DNA of 13,459 nucleotides from a virus. The DNA is taken from the UHGV virus genome UHGV-0077154. The stretch is one strand, 5' to 3'. The notes under the pieces are model-generated. The model did not search any database and was not told the origin of the DNA. It was given only the letters and a program-made list of their open reading frames with translations. Every line of letters starts with the position of its first letter. Position 1 is the first letter of the stretch. Of this stretch, positions 622 to 13,459 are shown piece after piece. Position numbers and translations under genes: made by a program.

Positions 622-1257
622 ATGGCTGAGTATCATCCTGCGGTATTTAATGCTGAGGCTTTTAACTGTCCTTACTGCGGTGTATATGCCCGTCAGTTCT
701 GGCGCAATTTGTTTGGTAGCGGAAATGCGTTGGCAACTGTTGCGACTGCGTTCCGTATGTCAACATGTTCTCATTGTGATGAAGATTCTTATTGGTATGA
801 GGGCAATATGATGGTCCCTGCTGCTGGAAATGTGGAACTACCTAGTCCTGACATGCCTGAAGACTGCAAGTTCGACTATATGGAAGCAAGAAGCATCGTT
901 AATCTGTCCCCTAAAGGTGCTGCTGCACTCCTTCGCCTGAGTCTGCAAAAACTGATGGTCCACCTTGGCGAACCGGGTAAACATATTGACACGGACATAA
1001 AATCTCTCGTGGCTAAAGGCTTGTCTCCGTTGGTCCAAAGAGCCGCAGATATTTGTCGCATTGTCGGTAATCAGGCTGTTCACCCCGGAGAAATTAATCT
1101 TGATGATGACCCGCAATTAGCACATGGCCTCTTCAAATTACTGAATATTATTGTCACGGAACAAATTACCAGACCCAAAGAGGTTGAAAAGATGTTCAAT
1201 AGTATGCCTGAAAGGGCGTTGAAGGGTATTGAAAACAGAGATAAACCTAAAACTTAA
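622..1257 (+). CDS. Zn-ribbon plus DUF4145-like domain protein (211 aa), possible defence/abortive-infection cargo
   Basis: ORF with two CxxC pairs at the N-terminus (CPYC, CSHC). The C-terminal half has the pattern [13 protein letters not shown]...[33 protein letters not shown], which I recall as the DUF4145 signature (R-x-GN-x-a-H). Weak SD (AAGG about 12 nt upstream). Followed by a hairpin at 1263-1276. Confidence 0.6.
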
Positions 1258-1282: not shown

Positions 1283-2101
1283 TTATTCAGAAAACCAAAT
1301 TTCTGGCCGTCTAAACTCCTTATTCTCAATAAAAAACAGAATATCTTTCCAGGCTTCTTCATTTTCTTCCCAGAATTTTTGTTTTTCATTCATTGTAAGG
1401 ACTTTACTATCATCTATTAACTTCTTGAGAATAGCAGGGATATCTTTATAGGGTTTTTTCCAGAAGGCATTACGTAATTCTTCAATTTCTGCATTTGCAT
1501 CCCGAACGGGTTTTAGAAGTTCAAGCTGTTTTTCTGTATCGGTAATAGGTTTATTTCCAACCCACTGATGATAGATTTTGCTAGCTTCTTCATGATGACC
1601 CCGAAGAATTGTTATTATTGTTTTTGAGAGTAACGAGCACATGTCAAAAGTAGTAAAGTAAAACCAATCGTGTTTGATTGCGGTTAATTCATCTTTTTTA
1701 ACCCCTATTTGTTCAAGTTCACTCGAAATTGAAGATACTAATTTATAAAGATCTTTGTTTGATGTTGCTGTATCTAGGCGTCCGGTTCTGGAGGCTAATG
1801 AAATAGCTACTTCAGAAATAGGTAAGGAAACTTTTCTTAAACTATCTAAAACTTTTTCAGCATCGTTAATAGTATCTCTTAATTTTGCCTCCATGCCTAA
1901 GAGCTTTATTTCATGCCATTCAAATTGAGTAAGTACCATCAACCCGAAGCCTGTTACAATGACAACAGTCCCTTCAGTTGCTCCTATTGTCAGAGTTACA
2001 ATTACACCAGCGCCTATAAGTAGCAATGCAATGAAAAACAAAAAATTCTTTATCCATTTATTTTTTAGCATATCACTGTCACCATTACGATTAAATTTCA
2101 T
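1283..2101 (-). CDS. Hypothetical membrane protein (272 aa, or 262 aa from the second Met), AT-rich cargo gene
   Basis: Long ORF in visibly AT-rich DNA. N-terminal hydrophobic stretch FLFFIALLLIGAGVIVTLTIGATEGTVVIVTGFGLMVL predicts 1-2 TM helices, followed by a charged, helical soluble domain. A GGTGA SD precedes the second Met (start about 2071). Confidence 0.65.
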   Translation of the reverse strand: MKFNRNGDSDMLKNKWIKNFLFFIALLLIGAGVIVTLTIGATEGTVVIVTGFGLMVLTQFEWHEIKLLGMEAKLRDTINDAEKVLDSLRKVSLPISEVAISLASRTGRLDTATSNKDLYKLVSSISSELEQIGVKKDELTAIKHDWFYFTTFDMCSLLSKTIITILRGHHEEASKIYHQWVGNKPITDTEKQLELLKPVRDANAEIEELRNAFWKKPYKDIPAILKKLIDDSKVLTMNEKQKFWEENEEAWKDILFFIENKEFRRPEIWFSE

Positions 2102-2124: not shown

Positions 2125-2334
2125 CTATTTTTCGTTCTCTGATGCCTCAAACGTCTTGGAGTGAGGGCAGGACTGGGAGCGCGTCACCAGCGTGAACAGA
2201 TAAATGTTGCTTTCGTAAGTGCAAAGCCGTTTTCCGCCCTGTAACTCTTGTTCGTCGGGGTTGCTCATGGTGATTTTTCCTGCATGAGCCGCCAGCGGCA
2301 GCAGTGCCACAACAAATAGTAAAATTTTCTTCAT
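2125..2334 (-). CDS. Small signal-peptide protein (~69 aa), function unknown
   Basis: MKKILLFVVALLPLAAHA|GK... is a typical Sec signal peptide with an AHA-G cleavage site; the mature part has 2 Cys. The track ORF 2125..2340 begins with GTG; ATG at 2334 is the more likely start. Weak SD. Confidence 0.4.
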   Translation of the reverse strand: MKKILLFVVALLPLAAHAGKITMSNPDEQELQGGKRLCTYESNIYLFTLVTRSQSCPHSKTFEASENEK

Positions 2335-3325
2335 TTCCACAACCTGCCCCGTAGGTGTCCCGGCTCTTTATCCTCCAAGTTTACATTCTCCTGTTGAAAA
2401 TATCCCCGGCTCTGTTGGTGATCTGCTAGACCGTCAGCCCAGGCCCTCGGTGAAAAGCGCTTTTCTTCGCCAAATATCGCTACGTTATGCCTTCAGCGAC
2501 ACGCCTCACTGCAACAAGCAGTGCAGTTACACAATGCTGCTTTGGGCTGAGGCAAGGGAGATAACTTGATGTTTTGAAGTGCCTCTGTTCACTAATTGTA
2601 CAACCATTTAACATATTGTATCTTATAAGTACTTGACTGGAATGGTCAGGTATTGCTTTTCGGAGCGTTGATGCGAAGCGGAGTACACAACAACGATTTG
2701 ATCAACAGAAGGAAAGCATTCGGGAGGATTTGAGGTGAGTTCTCTTGTTCAAGGATTTTGGATGAGTTTGTCCGGTCACCACACAATTTCAGGTTTCAGG
2801 CCTTTGAAGCTGCCAGCGCATCTAACACGATGAAAGAGCATTTTTCTCTTTATCAGCAGAAAAAGAGCTACTACGGCGACGTTACCACAACGGGGTGAAG
2901 AACTATCGTCACCTGGCGAAATTCTCCCGCCCTTGCAGGTCACGGATACGTACCTTTTCCCGCACCAGCGCAAGCCTTCTCACCAATAGCCCCGTATGCT
3001 CCACCAGAAGCGCTACAGCGCGTCATCTCCACACAATTGTAAACTACACACCCATAGCACAGCGCCCCGCTGAGAAGCTCTGACACGCCCAGAAATGGAT
3101 GGTTTTTCGTTGATTTTGCGAAGAAAATTAATTTTTTCGGTATGGAAGGGCGGATCGGTAAACTGGTTTGACACGCATTTGGTTGACATATTTAACGCAT
3201 CCAGCCCCTGCGCGGGTTCGTTGTGTATCCGATACCATAACGATCACCACACCACACAGGCGAGCCAGTGACAACAGACAGGATTTTCTAGCAATTAACC
3301 GCAATTAACAGGTATTAAAGCTCTA

Positions 3326-3697
3326 TTATTTCCCGCCGAAAATCCAACCGATGATGGCACCGATTATCGCAGAGCGGGTCTCACCTGCTGCTCCTTTGAG
3401 AACGTTAATAACTGCATCGCCTGCACCAGGTGCCTGCTGTTGAAGTAAATTCAAACCACGAGGTGTTAACTTGGCGGCGGTATCCATGTCGGTTGAAGAG
3501 ATTATCTCCGTGTAACCCATATCGCTGAGAGCCTGGAGTGTGTTGCAAAGCAGGTCAATCTGAGTTCTGTCTCCTCTGGGCTTCCAGCCGAAGTCTGAAA
3601 ATTCGAAAGAAGAGTAAGCCGGATAGTCCGCAAACAGTTTCACCAGGATTCCAGTTGCCATCTCGTTAAAGCTGTCTTTGCCTTGGACGAATTCCAT
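3326..3697 (-). CDS. Hypothetical protein (123 aa) with C-terminal Gly-rich hydrophobic tail (tail-anchored?)
   Basis: Good SD (AAAGGAAA, about 8 nt upstream of ATG on the minus strand). C-terminus SAIIGAIIGWIFGGK looks like a single TM/GxxxG segment. Transcribed divergently from the iteron/promoter control region. Confidence 0.6.
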   Translation of the reverse strand: MEFVQGKDSFNEMATGILVKLFADYPAYSSFEFSDFGWKPRGDRTQIDLLCNTLQALSDMGYTEIISSTDMDTAAKLTPRGLNLLQQQAPGAGDAVINVLKGAAGETRSAIIGAIIGWIFGGK

Positions 3698-3821
3698 AAT
3701 GTTTCCTTTTGTTCACTGATTGAACGAGGTTACTTACTTACCGCTGGAAGTGCCAGCAAGAAGGGATGACGCTGTGCTGTTAATCACTAGGTGAGGGGGT
3801 GTCTTCTACCAGAGGGGAGGC

Positions 3822-3916
3822 CATTGGTAAAGAATCTTAACTAACGTTAGTAAAGATCCTTAACCAGCCATTAGTAAAGAATCTTAACTAACCATTGGTA
3901 AAGATACTTAACCGTA
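3822..3916. repeat. Four tandem ~24-bp iterons (consensus about CATTG-GTAAAGA-ATCTTAAC), followed by an AT-rich stretch (3917-3970)
   Basis: GTAAAGA recurs at 3827, 3850, 3874 and 3898 (spacing 23/24/24 bp), with conserved flanks cattgGTAAAGAatcttaac. Downstream AT-rich DNA contains TAGATCA x2 and CTATATCA x2. Confidence 0.7.
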
Positions 3917-3985
3917 CTATATCACTTACTAGATCATCTTTAGATCACTGCCTATATCAGTAAAAACATTAAGGTCAAAGACAGA

Positions 3986-4001
3986 TTGAACATGCGTTCA
4001 A
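3986..4001. promoter_or_regulatory. Inverted repeat TTGAAC-ATGC-GTTCAA, operator-like
   Basis: 6-bp arms are exact reverse complements with a 4-bp spacer; located in the divergent control region. Confidence 0.35.
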
Positions 4002-4296
4002 TTGTTGGAGTTGTTAGGTGTTATGTAGACAGGCTTCGCCTGTTTACACTCTGTGTGGAAGACAAGCGCAAGCGCGTCAGTCCAATGTGGATCGAGCACG
4101 GCGCAGAGGAGCTTTAAACGCGACGTAACTCCCCCCTTGGAGGGGCGGCGCACCCCCCTCAACCCTGCGCTCTAACAACATCTCTAGAGTCCTCTATCGC
4201 GTTCTGAGCGTCTTTCTCTTATTGTTGGTGACTTTGTACCGTTCCGCTTACAGCGTTGAATCTGAAGCGTCTGAGAGCGTTTTGTGATTACGGGGC

Positions 4297-4410
4297 TTGA
4301 CAAAGAAAATGTATGTGTATAAGGTTGCGGGGTATTGACACAAAACATTTATATCTCTTTATTCATTAAATGAGTTATCGGTTGACAAAGAAACTAATTT
4401 ACTATAAAAT
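4297..4410 (+). promoter_or_regulatory. Three tandem TTGACA-containing repeats/promoters upstream of the rightward operon
   Basis: TTGACAAAGAAA at 4297-4308 and 4382-4393, TTGACACAAAAC at 4335-4346. The third has a good -10 (TAAAAT at 4405-4410, 17-bp spacer); the first has TATAAG at 4318-4323. All are oriented toward the CDS at 4469. Confidence 0.55.
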
Positions 4411-4468
4411 ATATATTATCAAATGAGATGATTTTATGACTAAACAATAACTTAAATAGGAGAGATAC

Positions 4469-5072: not shown

Positions 5073-5264
5073 ATGATTGTGAAACTGTCACTAGACGATG
5101 AAACATATGCAATTTTACGCGAAGAATCTGACCGTTTGGGGATGCCAGTTCCGAGGATGATCCGGAACATGTGCCAGAACCTGGCGAAACACATTCAGAA
5201 ACGCAATGAACAACCACTGACGAACCCACAGGGAGAACAACATGACAGAGACAGTAGAAGCTAA
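5073..5264 (+). CDS. Ribbon-helix-helix-like small DNA-binding protein (~61-63 aa)
   Basis: IVKLSLDDETYAILREESDRLGMPVPRMIRNM fits the beta-strand plus two-helix pattern of CopG/Arc/MetJ-type RHH proteins. GGAG lies 8 nt upstream of GTG at 5079, which may be the true start rather than ATG at 5073. Confidence 0.55.
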   Translation: MIVKLSLDDETYAILREESDRLGMPVPRMIRNMCQNLAKHIQKRNEQPLTNPQGEQHDRDSRS

Positions 5265-5886
5265 TCTGCCAGACGAACAGGACGGCACTTTTGATCGCAA
5301 TTATACCGAGATTAAGCGCTTGAAAGTGTTGGTTGCCGACGATGGAACTAAAATTCCGTTCAGCGCGAACATGAAAGTAGTCTACGCCTACCTCTACACC
5401 TTCCAGACAAATAAAGAGCGGCGGAACTACCCTGAGCCAATTTATCCTAATATGGAAATAATCGCGTGGGAAAATGGCATTACTAAACCCACGGCGCAAA
5501 AGGCTGTGGATGATTTGATGCGGGCGGGGGTGTTGATTAAGGACCAAATTCAGGTTGGGAGCGGGTTTAAGTCCAACAATTACGTTGTGTTGAAACCCTC
5601 GAAAGTGGTGGCGCGTGGCGTCACTCCACCGCATCCAAATGCTTCTAAATATTCAACTGCCGAGGAGAGCGGTAAGAATGAACAAAAACGTGCTGTGGTG
5701 GAACCTGCCGCGCCTGTTGCTGGAAAACCAGACGGCATACCTGTTGTGGATATTCCTGTCGATGCTGATGTACCTGCCGATGATGATGCGGTGATCGGAG
5801 ACTTTAGTGATCCTTACCTTGATGCTGAAGTAAAAGAATGGCAGAAACAAAAACATAGTGGAGGATTGAATTGTGTGAACACGTAA
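5242..5886 (+). CDS. Putative winged-helix-like DNA-binding protein with acidic C-terminal tail (214 aa); candidate iteron-binding initiator or regulator
   Basis: SD GGGAGAA 4-5 nt before ATG; overlaps the upstream gene by 23 nt. Segment MEIIAWENGITKPTAQKAVDDLMRAGVLIK resembles a wHTH; C-terminus is D/E/P-rich (DIPVDADVPADDDAVIGDF). Function is inferred only. Confidence 0.6.
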   Translation: MTETVEANLPDEQDGTFDRNYTEIKRLKVLVADDGTKIPFSANMKVVYAYLYTFQTNKERRNYPEPIYPNMEIIAWENGITKPTAQKAVDDLMRAGVLIKDQIQVGSGFKSNNYVVLKPSKVVARGVTPPHPNASKYSTAEESGKNEQKRAVVEPAAPVAGKPDGIPVVDIPVDADVPADDDAVIGDFSDPYLDAEVKEWQKQKHSGGLNCVNT

Positions 5887-6349: not shown

Positions 6350-6365
6350 TGAACGTTAACGTTCA
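6350..6365. promoter_or_regulatory. 16-bp perfect palindrome TGAACGTTAACGTTCA
   Basis: Exact self-complementary 16-mer immediately after the stop codon at 6347; shares the TGAAC/GTTCA half-site with the palindrome at 3986-4001. Confidence 0.4.
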
Positions 6366-6511: not shown

Positions 6512-6892
6512 ATGACATTGAACAGCATTAAAAATGCTCTGTTTGCCGCTATGCACGGCATGACACCGGAGGAATACGAACTCCAAAAGGCGCGGGACAA
6601 TCTCAAGAGCGTCACCGATAACTTTCTGGATCAACATCCGGAGTTGCTCAAATCAGCCTCGTCTGACACCCCCACGGATAAACGGGGCGAAGCCCTCTCG
6701 CCAATGCGAGACACCTTTGGTGCTGAACAACGGATTAAAAAATCTTTGGGCGCTGATAGCCGTCCGGCGGTAAGTCATACCGCTGATCACATCGATCCTG
6801 AAATGCTGGCGAAAGCTAAAGCAGCGGCTGCTGCTCTCGCAAAATCTGACCCTGATCGTTACGGCAATATCATCAAGCAGCAGGGGGTGTGA
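6512..6892 (+). CDS. Hypothetical protein (126 aa)
   Basis: ORF with GGAG about 11 nt upstream; its stop overlaps the start of the next gene (GTGATGA), suggesting translational coupling. Ala/Lys-rich C-terminus. Confidence 0.55.
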   Translation: MTLNSIKNALFAAMHGMTPEEYELQKARDNLKSVTDNFLDQHPELLKSASSDTPTDKRGEALSPMRDTFGAEQRIKKSLGADSRPAVSHTADHIDPEMLAKAKAAAAALAKSDPDRYGNIIKQQGV

Positions 6893-9036
6893 TGGCGAAT
6901 GGCAATATCATAGTGACTGAAACCGTAAACGAGGTGACATGGTCTGTCGATCGGACAGCCTTCGGTCGCGCCCTGAAAGCTGTTAAATCCATCAAGGCTG
7001 CTCATGAGAAACCAGCTAAGGCGCTTGAGAAGGCCCAGAAGCGGACCGTCCAGAGTGAAGGCAAAGCCGCACTAGCAGCAGCGAAAGCCCAGACAGCGAA
7101 GCTACGCCAGGCTGAACAATTGTCTAAACAGCAACAGAAACAAGCTCAGATACAAGCCAAAATGGAGCGGGACGCAGTAGCCCACGCCAATAAAATGACC
7201 TCATTACAGGCGCGTCAGTTATCCCAACAGGAACAGGCAGCACGTCAGAATGCCCGTTTAGCAGCAATATCTGAAAAGGTGAGACAGGCGAGTCGCTCCC
7301 GCGCGATGACCTACACCCCAAACATGGGCGGTCAACATTACGATCCTGGTCTTGTTTCCCGTCAGACTGACGCAATGAACCGTGGTCACGGCGCTGTTGC
7401 TGCCGACATCGCAGCCACCAAAAAGGCGATGGCCCTGGAGGAGAAGCGCCAGCGTGAGAAAGAGGCAGGACTTAAGCGTGAGGTGACTTATTACAACAGT
7501 TTGCGCCGTAGCGCTTTGACTCTGGCAAACGTGAACGGCGCTGACGTTGCAACCCGTTATAAAGCGATCAGTGCAGCAAAAGAGGCACTCAAAGCCCAGA
7601 AAGAAGAGCGTTATACGGTCGAAGAGACCCGTTTCGAAATGGCCCGTATCACTACAGAATTACGCAAGCAGGCTCGTCTGCAACAACGTATTACCCGTGA
7701 GCAGAAAGCCGCAGGTGTTCGTGCTGGTCGTGTACGCACAGAAAGCCGTGGTGGAAGTGTAGGTCTGGCTGCCGCTGGTGTTGTTGGTGGTGCGGCGTTA
7801 GTAGGTAGTATGGGCGTTTCTCGTGTTGGTCAGACCCTTCAGGGAAGCCTTGAGCGTTCTCGCGATGTGAAAAAACTCCAGCAGTATGGGATCAGCAACC
7901 TTGAGTTCGCAGCACTTCAGGATCTATCAATGAGCCGTGTTGGTTACTCACTGAGTGCTGACAAGCTGGCTGACCTCAACAAGGACACAACCGAAAAGGC
8001 CGGGGAATTGCTGAATACTGGCTCTTTCAAACGTAACAAGAAAACTGGACAGGTGAATTTCAGCGGCGGTGGTGAGTTTGCAGATATCATCAATAACGTA
8101 CTGACCTCCACCAACGGCAACCAGAAGGTAGCCCAAAAGGTGATCGGGGAACTGCAAAAACTGGATTTTCCAACATTTATCACTTATCTAAAGCAATTAC
8201 AGAAAACTTTCGGCTGGACTGATCGACAGGTGCGACACCTGGCCGAGGCTGTGAATGATGGTTCGGTCTTCCTCGAAGTGTTCAATGATGAGGGGCAGGG
8301 ACTTATCCAGCGTATGAATCAACTCGCTTCTGAAGGATGGACCCTATCTGATGCACAGCAGGCCAACCTTGATAAGCTGGCAGCTTTGGGTGCTGAGTAC
8401 AGTCGCGTGCAGATGTCGCTTGCTGACCACTTCAGCGCCAGCTTCGTGCAGGGTCTGGGAGAATATGCAGCTAATACTGACACTCTACGTCAGAAGATGA
8501 CTGGACTGATCCCAATTTCCGATGCTCTCGGCGTTGCCCTTGGTGAGCTAACCACCAACATTCTCTCCTTCGCTGGTCGAGTCGGTGAAGAACTCAAGAA
8601 AGGCGCGACACTGCCGGATGCAGTCTACAACACCGTAGTGGATGACTCTGCAAATAGCACCGCCGATTGGATTAAGGAAAAGACCGGATTTGATCCACGC
8701 AGCATCGGTCAGACGCTCAAACAGATTTACCCGTGGCTGGATAGTTTCGCTCCGAGCAATATCGGCTCAGGCACGGCGTATAACGATCCAGCGCTAGCGT
8801 TGAATGTTCCTGGTTTCAACTCAATACAACCCCAGCAACCAACGTTTACGATTCCGACAATTGACAGCATGACGCAGCGACAGCCGATTCCTGTTGCGGT
8901 CACTGGCGAAGCTGAGATTAAACTCTCACCGCTTGATATTAACGTGAATGACGGCGCTATTAACGGTTTGATTGATACAAAACTGAGGAGCTATGAGCAG
9001 GCACAGAACAACATGATCCTTGGTATTGCTCAATGA
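6889..9036 (+). CDS. Large coiled-coil protein with central Gly/Ala-rich hydrophobic segment (715 aa); tape-measure-like or scaffold-like structural protein
   Basis: N-terminal ~270 aa are A/K/Q/R-rich heptad-like repeats (KAQTAKLRQAEQLSKQQQKQAQIQAKMERD). Central segment GGSVGLAAAGVVGGAALVGSMGV is TM-like. Sits immediately upstream of the D/E-like capsid genes. ATG at 6892 is the more likely start (GGGGG 4 nt upstream). Assignment is by architecture only. Confidence 0.55.
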   Translation: MMANGNIIVTETVNEVTWSVDRTAFGRALKAVKSIKAAHEKPAKALEKAQKRTVQSEGKAALAAAKAQTAKLRQAEQLSKQQQKQAQIQAKMERDAVAHANKMTSLQARQLSQQEQAARQNARLAAISEKVRQASRSRAMTYTPNMGGQHYDPGLVSRQTDAMNRGHGAVAADIAATKKAMALEEKRQREKEAGLKREVTYYNSLRRSALTLANVNGADVATRYKAISAAKEALKAQKEERYTVEETRFEMARITTELRKQARLQQRITREQKAAGVRAGRVRTESRGGSVGLAAAGVVGGAALVGSMGVSRVGQTLQGSLERSRDVKKLQQYGISNLEFAALQDLSMSRVGYSLSADKLADLNKDTTEKAGELLNTGSFKRNKKTGQVNFSGGGEFADIINNVLTSTNGNQKVAQKVIGELQKLDFPTFITYLKQLQKTFGWTDRQVRHLAEAVNDGSVFLEVFNDEGQGLIQRMNQLASEGWTLSDAQQANLDKLAALGAEYSRVQMSLADHFSASFVQGLGEYAANTDTLRQKMTGLIPISDALGVALGELTTNILSFAGRVGEELKKGATLPDAVYNTVVDDSANSTADWIKEKTGFDPRSIGQTLKQIYPWLDSFAPSNIGSGTAYNDPALALNVPGFNSIQPQQPTFTIPTIDSMTQRQPIPVAVTGEAEIKLSPLDINVNDGAINGLIDTKLRSYEQAQNNMILGIAQ

Positions 9037-9132
9037 TGAAACAGAGGGTGGCGAATTCGTCGCCCCTATCTCAACACCACAATGCGTATGTATCAAATTT
9101 AGCGACAAATCAAATACTTTTCGTGAAATTTG

Positions 9133-9161
9133 TTGTAAATGATAATCATTCGTGTTAAAAT
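9133..9161 (+). promoter_or_regulatory. Sigma70-like promoter (TTGTAA-17-TAAAAT) overlapped by a Fur-box-like element
   Basis: AATGATAATCATT at 9138-9150 matches the central 13 of the 19-bp Fur consensus GATAATGATAATCATTATC (14/19 overall); -35 at 9133-9138, -10 at 9156-9161. Confidence 0.4.
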
Positions 9162-9167
9162 AATATA

Positions 9168-9542
9168 CAAGGTGAATTACAACAGCCAAATGTTTTTCCC
9201 TTCTCCTTAGGAATCAAAGTGCGCTTTTCCCAGAGCGCCTTTTCTCATACAGCCAATATCCGCACCCTCTCACGGTAAGGTTAGGCCATTGCCGCTGGCT
9301 GTATCAGAAAAGCATCGCAGAGCGATTAGCCAGCAGGCTAACCCGTTCTCGTGTGTAGAAAATTTCCACCTAAGGTGGATTTGCCAAAAGTCCTGTCCTC
9401 CTCGGCGGGCTGTCAGCCGGACACTAACGGCATCAGGTGGCAACGTTTTTGGGTCTCCTTACCCATTCTTTGGAGCGTTGCCGCCTCCTCATTCCTACCA
9501 GTGAAATTCACACCGGACGACTCTCCGTCCGGTCACTTTTTT
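9168..9542 (+). ncRNA. Candidate non-coding transcript/leader between the Fur-box promoter and a strong terminator; possibly a short ~80-nt form ending at a weak hairpin (9221-9246)
   Basis: No credible ORF here (the track ORFs are R/P-rich with no SD). Several hairpins: TTAGCC-AGCA-GGCTAA, TCCACC-TAA-GGTGGA, GCGCT-N8-AGCGC followed by CTTTTCTC. Ends at the intrinsic terminator 9513-9542. Confidence 0.3.
9513..9542 (+). terminator. Rho-independent terminator
   Basis: Stem CCGGACG (9513-9519), loop ACTCTC, stem CGTCCGG (9526-9532), then TCACTTTTTT. Confidence 0.7.
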
Positions 9543-9610
9543 CATCGGAACAATTCTAAAGGCTGGCCCTGTCGCCGTTTACGGCTCAAGCAGGCGCTGG
9601 CCTTTTGTTT

Positions 9611-9622
9611 ACATAGCTATGT
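9611..9622. promoter_or_regulatory. 12-bp perfect palindrome ACATAGCTATGT about 22 bp upstream of the D-like gene SD
   Basis: Exact self-complementary 12-mer; candidate operator/activator site for the capsid operon. Confidence 0.35.
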
Positions 9623-9645
9623 GAAATTTAACGGGAGTTAATTAT

Positions 9646-9987
9646 ATGAAAATGGGAAGCCTTGAGCGCTCTTACAATGACGTGATCGCGTATGCAGCCG
9701 ATCCGAATTTTGACCGCAAGACTATTACTGTCGATCTAGCTGTAGAAGTCCAGCCGGGTAGTTGCATTACCAGCACTGGAGCTGCTTATGTCTCTGGTGA
9801 TGACTGCCTGCTGGTCCTGAGCCACCACAGGGCCGAAGATGCTGCTCATATCATCGTTGCTGATCGCGGGATTTACATCAAACAAGACACCATCACCGCT
9901 GTTATGGGCGCTACCGCTGGCGCTAATGCTATTGCCGCACTCACCAAAACGGGCGCAATCCGTACTAGCGCACCGGACGCAGAATAA
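9646..9987 (+). CDS. Lambda gpD-like head decoration protein (113 aa), tentative
   Basis: Size (113 aa vs 110 for lambda D), position directly upstream of the E-like gene, and a Gly/Ala/Thr-rich beta-type composition (TITVDLAVEVQPGSCITSTGAAYVSGDD...TAGANAIAALTKTGAIRTS). SD GGGAG 8 nt before ATG. Confidence 0.45.
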   Translation: MKMGSLERSYNDVIAYAADPNFDRKTITVDLAVEVQPGSCITSTGAAYVSGDDCLLVLSHHRAEDAAHIIVADRGIYIKQDTITAVMGATAGANAIAALTKTGAIRTSAPDAE

Positions 9988-10005
9988 TAATAAGGAGAAG
10001 ACAAC

Positions 10006-11040
10006 ATGGGACTATCAACCAATTTCAGCTACGCGGATTACACCAACACCTTTGTGAACATGGATGCAAAGAACACTTTGCTGTCCACGCTTAATGTTTT
10101 CAGTGATCGTCAGACTTCTGCAAGTCCGAAGGTGAGCCTCGATATCATTGATGAAGTCGCTCAGAAGGTGGCAAGCTCTGTTAATCGTTACGGTTCAGAG
10201 TGGTCAACCATTCCTAAGCGTAGCGCTAGCAATCACCTGATTGAAGCTCCACTTTATGCTTTTCAAGACCGGATTACAGCGGCAGACGTGCAACCATATC
10301 GCAAACCAGGCTCCGACCTGCAAATGTCTGTAATGGATGCGGTCACTTCTTCTGCTGTCGCAATGCACGATAAGTACATGCGTACTAAAGAGAAAATTTT
10401 CGCTGACGCACTCTTCCGAAATACTGTCGAAGCGACCTACACCCAGCAGCCGATCATTTCCTGGGAAGATGAATTTGGATACCAACAGGCAACCGGAACG
10501 ATCAAAACCAGCGTTAGCTCTGGTGACCCACTTCGCAGCCTCGATGATGCAGTAACCGCTGCTAAAGTGCGCATGGGGGGCCTGGCTGGTCAGCTTGATG
10601 GATTTATCCTGTTTGCAGGTAGCAATGTTTATCGCGGCATTAAGTATCACCCTGATGTTCGTCAGAATGTTCAGTTCGGTGTGCTTGATCGGGATGTTCT
10701 GTTTAATAAAGAAGTGCTTCCGGCATTCTCAACATTCATCATTGAAAATGTTCGAGTGGTGGAGGTCACGGATCAGGCACTTTACGGAATTGGTCCGGAT
10801 GAATCCTTCCTGGTTCCACGTTTCAGCCGCCCACTGTCCTCTGATATTGCTCTACCTTTCGGTTATGTAGCAACGGCTACCAGCCGCAATCTTGATCTGG
10901 CATTTGCTGATCCGGTTGATTTCCGTATCTGGAGCGTACAGGACAAGTTTAAGAACGTGGAGCTATTCGCGGAAAGCTCAATCTTGCCTGTGGTGTACCG
11001 TCCGGATTTCGTTACAAAACTGACGAACGACGCAGCGTAA
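10006..11040 (+). CDS. Major capsid protein, lambda gpE-like family (344 aa)
   Basis: Strong SD AAGGAGAAG. Length 344 aa vs 341 for lambda E. C-terminal region ...VVYRPDFVTKLT resembles lambda E ...LADPDEFVSVQLA. Gene order decoration-then-capsid as in lambda. A hairpin at 11053-11074 (TGGGGC-N10-GCCCCA) follows the stop. Confidence 0.6.
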   Translation: MGLSTNFSYADYTNTFVNMDAKNTLLSTLNVFSDRQTSASPKVSLDIIDEVAQKVASSVNRYGSEWSTIPKRSASNHLIEAPLYAFQDRITAADVQPYRKPGSDLQMSVMDAVTSSAVAMHDKYMRTKEKIFADALFRNTVEATYTQQPIISWEDEFGYQQATGTIKTSVSSGDPLRSLDDAVTAAKVRMGGLAGQLDGFILFAGSNVYRGIKYHPDVRQNVQFGVLDRDVLFNKEVLPAFSTFIIENVRVVEVTDQALYGIGPDESFLVPRFSRPLSSDIALPFGYVATATSRNLDLAFADPVDFRIWSVQDKFKNVELFAESSILPVVYRPDFVTKLTNDAA

Positions 11041-12092: not shown

Positions 12093-12118
12093 AAAAAGGC
12101 GCAATAGCGCCTTTTTTT
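12093..12118. terminator. Bidirectional rho-independent terminator (AAAAAGGCGC-AATA-GCGCCTTTTTTT)
   Basis: Perfect GGCGC/GCGCC stem with a 4-nt loop, flanked by an A-run and a T-run; sits between the convergent cassette gene 2 and integrase 3' ends. Confidence 0.8.
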
Positions 12119-13313
12119 ACAAATCCGGATAACACGCCAACTCGACATACTCCGATAGTTCCTTCATCCCTGGCCCTTTGCTGTAGGTTCTGAATGCTTC
12201 GGTTTTCGCTTTTTGTTCGGTATGTCCAGTGATGGCTCCGATCCGTTGTTCTGGCACCCCTGCACGGTCTAAGCAGGTGATGAACATTCCCCGTAAGCTG
12301 TGAAAACATTGCCGATCTGTAGCGGTTGGCAATGTGCTGTCACGTAGCCGGGTAAACTTTTGGCTGTACCACGGACCCCGCTTACCATCCTTCCGAATGA
12401 TGTTATTAGACTGAGCCAGAAGATATTCACCGCTGTTATTTGCCAGATGCTTATCAACAATCCCCATCAGCAGCGAGTGGATCGGAACATACCGCACCCC
12501 GGCTACAGTCTTGGACTTGCTGACAAAGAAACATCTGACACCCTCCAACATTACAATTTCATCCCGCTTGATGCTGGCGATCTCATCAAGTCGCATTCCT
12601 GAATACAGCCCAATCAGTATGACATCGCGTAGAACGTCATCCGCTTCTCTGACAAGTGTTTGCAATTGTTCAGGTTCAAACGGCTGATAACTTTCTATCG
12701 TGCGACGTGCTTCGAGGTTATGACCGTGAAACGGGTTACTGTCGGGGATTGCGTCATATCGACGTTTGGCGAACTCGTACAGACTCCCTAAAGAGGTTAG
12801 CCAGTTTTGCACGGTCTGCGGTGCTGCCTTTTTCTGTTGGCCTTCAATGAAGTCTGTAACCGTTCTGCGTCCTATCTTGTTCAGACTAATATCAACTTTA
12901 CCGATACTCTGGAGAAATACTTCCACCGCTCGCGCGGATTTGCTGAGTGTGGAAAATGCCCGACGTTCACTATAAACCGTCATGTATTCATCACGGATGA
13001 CTGCCAACGTTGGGATAGGGGAGACTGCTACAGGCGTACTCTTGGCCTGTTTGATTGTGGTGTGGAGTGTGGTGATCGCATTCTGGATGCGAATGTCTTC
13101 CCGATCAGGATTCAACAGGGCTTTCAGATTGTTGAACTCAATCAACATGTGATTTCTGAAGTGACGAGCCTTAAGGATGTCTTTTGTCCCGGTGGATTTT
13201 CGCCAGGCTCGTTTGTTGTCAAACAGGTGACGCATGTACGCAGGTACAAAGACCTGAAAGATCCATACGCCCGAATGACTTTGAAAAAGATACTGATTGT
13301 TCTTGATAGACAT
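12117..13313 (-). CDS. int: Tyrosine recombinase / phage-type integrase (398 aa)
   Basis: C-terminal catalytic motifs: GMRLDEI (Arg box I), HSLRGMFITCLDRAGVPEQRIGAITGH (H-x-x-R box II), FRTYSKG (catalytic Tyr). SD AGAGGA about 8 nt upstream of ATG; gene lies next to attR. Confidence 0.9.
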   Translation of the reverse strand: MSIKNNQYLFQSHSGVWIFQVFVPAYMRHLFDNKRAWRKSTGTKDILKARHFRNHMLIEFNNLKALLNPDREDIRIQNAITTLHTTIKQAKSTPVAVSPIPTLAVIRDEYMTVYSERRAFSTLSKSARAVEVFLQSIGKVDISLNKIGRRTVTDFIEGQQKKAAPQTVQNWLTSLGSLYEFAKRRYDAIPDSNPFHGHNLEARRTIESYQPFEPEQLQTLVREADDVLRDVILIGLYSGMRLDEIASIKRDEIVMLEGVRCFFVSKSKTVAGVRYVPIHSLLMGIVDKHLANNSGEYLLAQSNNIIRKDGKRGPWYSQKFTRLRDSTLPTATDRQCFHSLRGMFITCLDRAGVPEQRIGAITGHTEQKAKTEAFRTYSKGPGMKELSEYVELACYPDL

Positions 13314-13375: not shown

Positions 13376-13459
13376 AACGAGAGCTTCCCAAGCTCTATAC
13401 GAGGGTTCGATTCCCTTCGCCCGCTCCAGTCTCCTCATAAATTAACAAGTTATAATTTA
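13376..13459. repeat. attR: partial tRNA-Gly 3' copy (60 bp perfect to 13435) plus imperfect extension to the window end
   Basis: Identical to 2-61; the sequence upstream (caatgtcgggatggagt) does not match the tRNA 5' half, so this is the truncated copy. Confidence 0.8.

Follow-up and report, generated by a model that had tools for sequence, protein, structure and literature searches.

In described phages and phage satellites, the closest parallels to the gene considered here are the genes for the lambda repressor CI and the SaPI repressor Stl. These repressors contain a classical helix-turn-helix domain of the XRE type, are larger than the protein described below and have identifiable operators in divergent promoters. 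At the level of the predicted fold, the closest parallels are the small PadR-like (subfamily 2) and MarR regulators (5h20, 1xma, 3u2r and 6pcp) of ~100-140 amino acids (aa). Here we analyse a 123-aa protein encoded on the minus strand, at positions 3326-3697, of UHGV virus genome UHGV-0077154, a stretch of 13,459 nucleotides, referred to below as the window, which is an integrated island of ~13.4 kb. Its gene lies in the same divergent position, facing the main rightward operon, as those of Stl and CI, and its fold is likewise predicted to be of a DNA-binding type, with the topology and approximate size of the PadR-like and MarR regulators. Unlike the situation in Stl and CI, however, the rightward promoters of the island vary independently of the 123-aa protein, and no repeated operator-like motif follows it. 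It also differs from the MarR and PadR regulators in lacking a family-level sequence match, in being acidic, in its T-D-M-D wing tip, in combining a Gln/Pro/Gly linker with an exchangeable small-residue tail, and in that no operator was found. The gene content of the island matches none of the described satellite types (P4-like, PICI, cfPICI, PLE and PICMI).

We tentatively favour the reading that the 123-aa protein regulates the island as a cytoplasmic winged-helix protein, probably a dimer, encoded in the classical repressor position. It would be a small acidic cytoplasmic protein composed of a winged-helix domain, a QQQAPGAGD linker and a small-residue tail of ~30 residues forming two short helices, and would serve as the island's own regulator, whether as a maintenance or repressor-type factor or as an autoregulator. 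It may act as a dimer or oligomer, with self-association provided by helix 1 and the C-terminal helices, which could serve dimerization as in small PadR-type proteins, and with the terminal GxxxGxxxG forming a helix-packing surface. Its DNA binding, dimerization and regulatory role are what we infer, and its function is most likely that of an ordinary-looking, uncharacterised island regulator. A sequence-only reading of the window had offered three options, namely a membrane-tethered regulator, a superinfection-exclusion protein and unrelated cargo; of these a regulator is the most plausible, but the membrane tether falls away.

Conservation and position of the gene

The gene is present in the list of open reading frames (ORFs) exactly where the sequence-only reading had placed it, with an ATG start, 123 codons and a ribosome-binding site. 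A word-indexed search of 5.8 billion proteins recovered 179 homologues that are at least 89% identical and nearly all 123 aa long, from E. coli, Klebsiella, Enterobacter, Cronobacter, Citrobacter, Serratia, Lelliottia and other Enterobacteriaceae, while further searches added homologous clades at 58-83% identity, a Pantoea clade among them. Pairwise ratios of non-synonymous to synonymous substitution rates (dN/dS) are 0.10-0.31, and are low in the N-terminal 90 codons and in the tail alike. The ORF is a real gene under purifying selection, and its conservation amounts to 64-100%.

The family is narrow. An exhaustive phmmer search of 1.84 billion representatives returned 10 matches at E <= 0.001, which are close relatives or fragments save for one chance-level match within a 2,685-aa protein; therefore, no deep alignment could be built. 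No relative was found in IMG/VR viral contigs, in 50,697 phage genomes (tblastn) or in 72,556 plasmids, and a literature search found no description of the protein or of its island family. A scan of genome contigs placed the gene at three or more loci, at the least, among the matches listed.

We mapped the proteins of the window by tblastn onto 38 related loci, which are cited below by number (L001 and so on). In 29 of them the 123-aa gene is divergent from the homologue of p142, the 142-aa protein at the start of the rightward operon, with a gap of ~730-1010 bp. This arrangement is kept despite extensive mosaicism in the same loci, with the major capsid protein (MCP) only 31-53% identical in many of them, p142 29-99% and the integrase 40-94%. 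The capsid, Rep, integrase and promoter modules have been swapped around a 123-aa gene that was kept. Furthermore, every capsid-bearing relative sampled has this gene, which ranks among the best conserved. The fixed divergent position in the face of such mosaicism therefore shows that it is a core gene of a mosaic island family, and makes the positional claim robust. Thus, the argument that a leftward gene facing the iteron/promoter region holds a repressor-type position emerges strengthened. The gene is not, however, the only one to be transcribed leftward, as the sequence-only reading had supposed: it is the promoter-proximal leftward gene, but after a gap of ~1 kb two more genes follow on the minus strand (2125-2340 and 1283-2101). 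These other leftward genes have no match to a DNA-binding family in Pfam, PHROG and NCBIfam scans.

The predicted domain and the search for its sites

Residues 1-90 very probably form a winged helix of the MarR/PadR type, a fold of the DNA-binding kind, as judged from structure prediction. A first AlphaFold2 run on a shallow alignment gave a predicted local distance difference test (pLDDT) score of 47.8 and was discarded. The second model used an alignment (A7) enlarged by the Pantoea clade and two metagenomic variants, and reached a pLDDT of 66 and a predicted template modelling (pTM) score of 0.59, with 10-residue block means of 61-86 over residues 11-90. It comprises helices at residues 3-23, 33-36, 44-59 and 79-88 and strands at residues 28-32, 63-68 and 72-77. 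The resulting order, helix-strand-helix-helix-strand-strand-helix, is that of a canonical winged helix, with the H1-B1-H2-H3-B2-wing-B3 topology. In Foldseek searches the best matches to the model were the MarR protein BpsR and then a PadR-like protein, and the BFVD fold library gave no informative match.

The only significant sequence-family match is to phrog_2266, which covers residues 8-90 of the window protein (E 1.6e-6) and is matched by 22 of 22 diverse homologues (best E 4.7e-8). This is a phage protein family of unknown function; the similarity concerns the N-terminal domain only and is remote, as follows from the failure of tblastn to find a match in the phage genomes. PDB sequence and profile searches gave chance-level matches only. 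The name DUF2513 (PF10711), carried by four homologous UniRef clusters, was not reproduced, with no PF10711 match in a Pfam-A hmmscan at E up to 10 for the window protein, 32 homologues and the four named clusters themselves. Accordingly, the earlier statement that the protein has no recognisable DNA-binding motif holds at the sequence level, where Pfam and NCBIfam are empty, but not at the level of fold, where structure prediction gives a winged helix.

Several observations weigh against an island regulator that binds DNA. The confidence of the model is moderate and the tail is poorly modelled (pLDDT 41-53), and at E up to 10 the protein matches no Pfam or NCBIfam family, MarR and PadR included. 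In all clades the winged-helix domain is acidic, with an isoelectric point (pI) of 4.4-4.8 and a net charge of -3 to -6. T-D-M-D is invariant at the tip of the wing, variation falls on the exposed positions of the putative recognition helix, and surface conservation is highest at acidic or aromatic residues (E12, D35, W38, D70 and D72). The acidity, the wing tip and the variable recognition helix weaken the case for sequence-specific DNA binding. In favour of such binding, basic residues are present at the start of helix 3 (K39, R41 and R44) and flanking the wing (K76 and R80).

The distribution of the gene also weighs against such a regulator. In L004, L021 and L023 the gene is intact although the island core is absent, and it adjoins a truncated integrase and PAAR toxins (L004 and L023) or Hcp-Tlde1 (L021), these being orphan effectors of the type VI secretion system (T6SS). 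Another intact copy is found in a different island of Pantoea, which has genes for an integrase, Dam and a DUF4062 protein. Such core-less copies represent remnants of, or alternative hosts for, one gene module.

Finally, no operator that tracks the 123-aa protein emerged when iterons, promoters and palindromes were compared across loci. The segment 4291-4468, which contains the rightward promoters, is absent or replaced in L002, L003, L018, L019, L022 and L024, where the protein is nevertheless 89-98% identical. The gene's own leader contains the inverted repeat GTTCA-N5-TGAAC at 3711-3725 (-28), the arms of which are kept in Pantoea around a longer loop, but in an upstream alignment of 24 loci this palindrome does not track protein type. 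TGAAC/GTTCA palindromes, with 2 present and 0.05 expected, are enriched and were considered as operators. However, the distal one, at 3987-4000, shows the compensatory variants TTGAAC/GTTCAA, GTGAAC/GTTCAC and TAGAC/GTCTA, the last of them in L025, where the N-terminal domain differs from that of the window protein by one residue. Compensatory change beside a near-constant N-terminal domain indicates that this palindrome is a hairpin of a structured element; since the distal palindrome evolves as a hairpin and the proximal one ignores protein type, neither is supported as an operator of the protein. A perfect 16-bp palindrome, TGAACGTTAACGTTCA, is found at 6350-6365, the junction that follows the 158-aa gene; L020 has the identical sequence and L019 and L027 have variants, and the arms equal those of the palindromes near the 123-aa gene.

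The iterons were rejected as operators, as they co-vary with the N-terminal domain of Rep independently of the type of 123-aa protein. Wherever a Rep was detected, each of the three iteron types goes with its own type of Rep N-terminal domain, type I in the window, L005 and L020, type II in nine loci (plus L035, a short contig in which no Rep was detected) and type III in five loci, and the main type of 123-aa protein occurs with all three. This co-variation identifies the iterons as the origin repeats of Rep. Within one island family (loci L001-L036) it amounts to a textbook-like swap of origin and initiator specificity. A central/C-terminal segment (nucleotides 5660-5772), which is acidic, is conserved in all three Rep types.

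A sigma-70-like promoter with an 11/12 match faces right at 4382-4410 on the plus strand, and a 9/12 match at 4442-4415 on the minus strand points left, towards it, and overlaps it; there are two copies of the 12-mer TTGACAAAGAAA (4297 and 4382). The overlapping promoters at 4382-4442 possibly form a promoter-competition switch, with the number of matches equal to the chance expectation. No consensus sigma-70 site was found in the 3698-3766 leader by a scan and by eye.

Between the iterons and the rightward promoters lies a conserved structured element, the hairpins of which are kept by compensatory changes, such as GGCTTC/GAAGCC against GACTGC/GCAGTC, and which has GNRA-like loops (GCAA and GCGA) on the plus strand. 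It has no Rfam, plasmid or phage match, and might function as a regulatory RNA or, at the origin, as a single-strand initiation signal. The Pantoea island has iterons of its own, three copies of CCTCTATTTTnGnGGGG just upstream of the 123-aa homologue, and it also has the structured element's core, AGACAAGCGCAAGCGCG, with the relative orientation unchanged (L012 9641-9660). Thus, the 123-aa gene is always next to an iteron array, and the structured element, the iterons and the 123-aa gene constitute the conserved unit.

These observations also bear on the possibility, which we regard as doubtful, that the winged helix is an adaptor that binds proteins, with an acidic surface (E12, D35, W38 and the T-D-M-D tip) and the exchangeable tail contacting partners. 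In that case, the candidate partners, equally doubtful, would be a protein of a helper phage or, at the neighbouring origin, the conserved acidic C-terminal part of the island's Rep, with a role in sensing or interference. Such an adaptor is consistent with the acidity of the domain in all clades, with a conserved surface that is acidic and aromatic while the putative recognition helix varies, and with the failure of any operator to track the protein. The physical linkage of the gene to four types of iteron array, including that of the otherwise unrelated Pantoea island, the C-terminal segment common to the three Rep types and the recombinational swapping of tails described below, as expected of a specificity module, point the same way. 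Conversely, the closest structural neighbours are regulators that bind DNA, helix 3 begins with basic residues, no partner was identified, and linkage to the origin may merely reflect module boundaries. A more specific form of the proposal is improbable: here the acidic winged helix would recognise a helper-phage protein, a replication factor of the host or the conserved C-terminal part of Rep, and a flexible linker would join it to the tail helix, which would add a second specificity, self-assembly or peripheral membrane attachment.

The C-terminal tail and the remaining explanations

The sequence-only reading had seen in the end of the protein a Gly-zipper membrane anchor. The tail of the window protein indeed ends in SAIIGAIIGWIFGGK, with a literal GxxxGxxxG (G113, G117 and G121), a feature shared with the C-tail-anchored proteins of the ElaB/YqjD type and their glycine-zipper helices, which have a similar Gly/Ala/Ile-rich C-terminal segment. 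However, its longest run without D, E, K, R, N, Q or H is of 14 residues, SAIIGAIIGWIFGG, whereas bacterial tail anchors have ~17-20 or more apolar residues. The ElaB tail has 17 uninterrupted apolar residues. The best Kyte-Doolittle means are 1.08 over 19 residues and 1.45 over 15 residues, the position-independent sum on the Hessa scale is +7.0 kcal/mol and the hydrophobic moment is low, at 0.09. No signal peptide was found in the protein, and neither the Pfam Gly-zipper families (Gly-zipper_Omp, _OmpA and _YMGG) nor membrane families matched it at E up to 10.

Comparison with the homologues is more telling. They present three homologous tail types: type 1, SAIIGAIIGWIFGGK; type 2, AAISSTVNAAINWIFSGIK or AAISSMVGAAINRIFSDGK, from Pantoea; and type 3, GGAVAGSTMSALLDWIFKGNKSR, which is seen in L025, L027, L029 and L037. 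In the other tail types G113, G117 and G121 align with S/N/S or S/D/K, and W118 is replaced by R (...AIIGRIFGGK) in 5 of the 116 full-length type-1 homologues of 123 aa that were aligned. R, N, D and K occur within the segment in homologous tails, so that the hydrophobicity of an anchor is not conserved; what all types keep is a richness in small residues and, at the very end of the protein, a [hydrophobic]2-x-W-I-F-x-G motif. The protein of L025 equals the window protein at residues 1-82, save for R80M, and then continues with a type-3 tail. A near-identical N-terminal domain with a different tail implies that tails have been exchanged by recombination at the QQQAPGAGD linker, where the confidence of the model also drops (block means of 71 for residues 81-90 and 52 for residues 91-100).

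A C-tail-anchored transmembrane protein was thus rejected, the run being too short (14 against ~18-20 apolar residues) and its hydrophobicity not conserved. The tail is probably not a transmembrane anchor: the short apolar run and the charged and polar residues in homologous tails identify it as an exchangeable small-residue helix, which behaves as a helix-packing or partner-binding element. The GxxxGxxxG noted earlier is therefore real, but the anchor read into it is not borne out. This corrects an attractive but wrong reading, in that the terminal GxxxGxxxG is one variant of a helix that ranges from polar to apolar and can be exchanged.

A weaker form of membrane association, in which the C-terminal helix would hold the winged helix at the inner membrane in a peripheral or monotopic manner, without spanning it, is very improbable, and so are the roles that would go with it, namely a superinfection block, abortive infection or the tethering of island DNA or a regulator. 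MinD and FtsA have amphipathic membrane-targeting helices at their extreme C-termini. The 14 residues that precede the terminal Lys of the window variant are all apolar or small and include the GxxxGxxxG, and the C-terminal motif with W-I-F persists in all tail types. Moreover, the neighbours on the same strand encode a secreted 71-aa protein and a membrane protein, followed on the opposite strand by PD-T7-4, and intact copies of the gene persist in remnants. The short run, its hydropathy values and the charged and polar residues of homologous tails tell against this proposal as they do against an anchor, as does the absence of Gly-zipper or membrane family matches; the hydrophobic moment shows that the tail is not a classic amphipathic membrane-targeting helix either, and the defence and exclusion profiles of PADLOC do not match the protein. 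With the anchor unsupported, the superinfection-exclusion option of the sequence-only reading has lost its main support.

Accessory cargo, such as a moron kept for the benefit of the host and without a role in the life cycle of the island, has slimmer prospects still. The gene does border the accessory arm with PD-T7-4, the membrane protein and the secreted protein, intact copies lie beside T6SS orphan effectors without an island core, and a copy is present in the different Pantoea island. However, the cargo genes of the family are highly variable, whereas the 123-aa gene is found in all the capsid-bearing relatives sampled, is among the best conserved and has a fixed place next to the origin. 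Hence, a core gene such as this is unlikely to be unrelated cargo, even though some island remnants retain it intact.

Least probable of all is a packaging-specificity factor resembling the small terminase subunits, which have an N-terminal (winged-)helix DNA-binding domain and a helical oligomerisation part, with pac/cos often in or beside the gene: the architecture of a winged helix with C-terminal helices, the movement of the gene, its 70-nt leader and ~400 nt of downstream non-coding DNA (2921-3325, which would be its pac/cos site) as one module across mosaic islands, and an island in which a capsid gene, but neither a terminase nor a portal gene, is recognisable are outweighed by the lack of any terminase-family match in Pfam, PHROGs or fold searches, by transcription away from the morphogenesis genes, by the acidity of the protein and by copies in islands and remnants without capsid genes.

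The DNA that accompanies the gene consists of only ~70 nt upstream (3698-3766) and ~400 nt downstream (2921-3325). The downstream region is 70-93% identical across mosaic relatives, its conserved blocks alternating with hairpin-like variable blocks, and no small conserved ORFs were found in the 1-kb gap downstream of the gene, of which it is part. Candidate roles for this region are those of a cos/pac site and of a non-coding RNA.

The island and its family

The features of the window are collected in Table 1. The full-length match of PD-T7-4 shows that the island carries defence cargo at its tRNA-proximal end. The 71-aa phrog_4641 gene recurs in many relatives on the same strand, 1.1-2.1 kb downstream of the 123-aa gene, and a similar small secreted ORF is also found downstream of this gene in the remnant L004. 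The rightward operon also contains an ORF that looks like a ribbon-helix-helix protein, as judged by eye and with no family match, a gene for a 715-aa protein with tape-measure-like matches and, in the 6889-11040 region, a 113-aa ORF upstream of the MCP. No portal, protease or terminase is recognisable in the island. A region 92% identical to the window is present in 27 of 5,426 complete E. coli genomes, and in the one genome inspected (L001) the island is located at the tRNA-Thr gene beside proA.

Table 1. Positions of the features discussed, in the window unless another locus is named
Feature	Position	Strand	Remarks
Direct repeat bounding the island, exact, 59 bp	2-60 and 13376-13434		3' end of tRNA gene
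PD-T7-4 defence gene, DUF4145 protein	622-1257	+	Full-length PADLOC match, E 4e-98; single-gene anti-phage system
272-aa membrane protein	1283-2101	-	Left arm
71-aa secreted protein	2125-2340	-	Signal peptide; phrog_4641
Conserved non-coding DNA directly downstream of the 123-aa gene	2921-3325		Accompanies the gene in most loci
Coding sequence of the 123-aa protein	3326-3697	-	Stop codon 3326-3328; ORF list, 179 close homologues, dN/dS
C-terminal tail, residues 95-123	3329-3415	-	Two predicted short helices, 92-102 and 108-120
Conserved Gln/Pro/Gly linker, residues 86-94 (QQQAPGAGD)	3416-3442	-	Recombination junction; alignment A4
Predicted winged-helix domain, residues 1-90	3428-3697	-	Acidic, pI 4.4
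Conserved 5' region of the 123-aa gene, ~70 nt	3698-3766	-	Upstream alignment of 24 loci, segment BLAST
Shine-Dalgarno AGGA	3704-3707	-	Six bases 5' of ATG; kept in relatives
Four iterons of ~24 bp	3820-3916		Repeat finder; binding sites of the island's Rep, not of the 123-aa protein
Conserved structured non-coding element	~3968-4170	+	Between iterons and rightward promoters
Start of rightward operon	4469	+	142-aa protein (p142) of unknown kind
Rep-like winged-helix initiator	5242-5886		Rightward operon
Major capsid protein, lambda gpE type	10006-11040		Rightward, after the 715-aa gene
Integrase	12117-13313	-	End distal to the intact tRNA
Core-less copy of the 123-aa gene	L004 10001-13433
Core-less copy of the 123-aa gene	L021 5791-7996
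Core-less copy of the 123-aa gene	L012 8567-15678		Pantoea island of ~7 kb

The family to which the island belongs is one of mosaic, integrase-bearing islands that carry a capsid gene, are located at tRNA genes in Enterobacterales and resemble phage satellites. It is widespread yet undescribed, with members in E. coli, Klebsiella, Enterobacter, Cronobacter, Serratia and Pantoea that carry a capsid gene together with defence cargo such as PD-T7-4. The pairs of iteron and Rep specificities, along with the module of structured element, iterons and 123-aa gene, are markers with which these islands can be found and classified. Were the origin-linked adaptor, improbable as it is, to prove correct, replication or induction of the satellite would be coupled to the helper or to the cell envelope, and the 123-aa protein would represent a new kind of satellite control module, placed beside iterons of whatever type. 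If the protein is instead the island regulator that we tentatively favour, it would be the entry point to understanding how this family of islands is silenced and induced.

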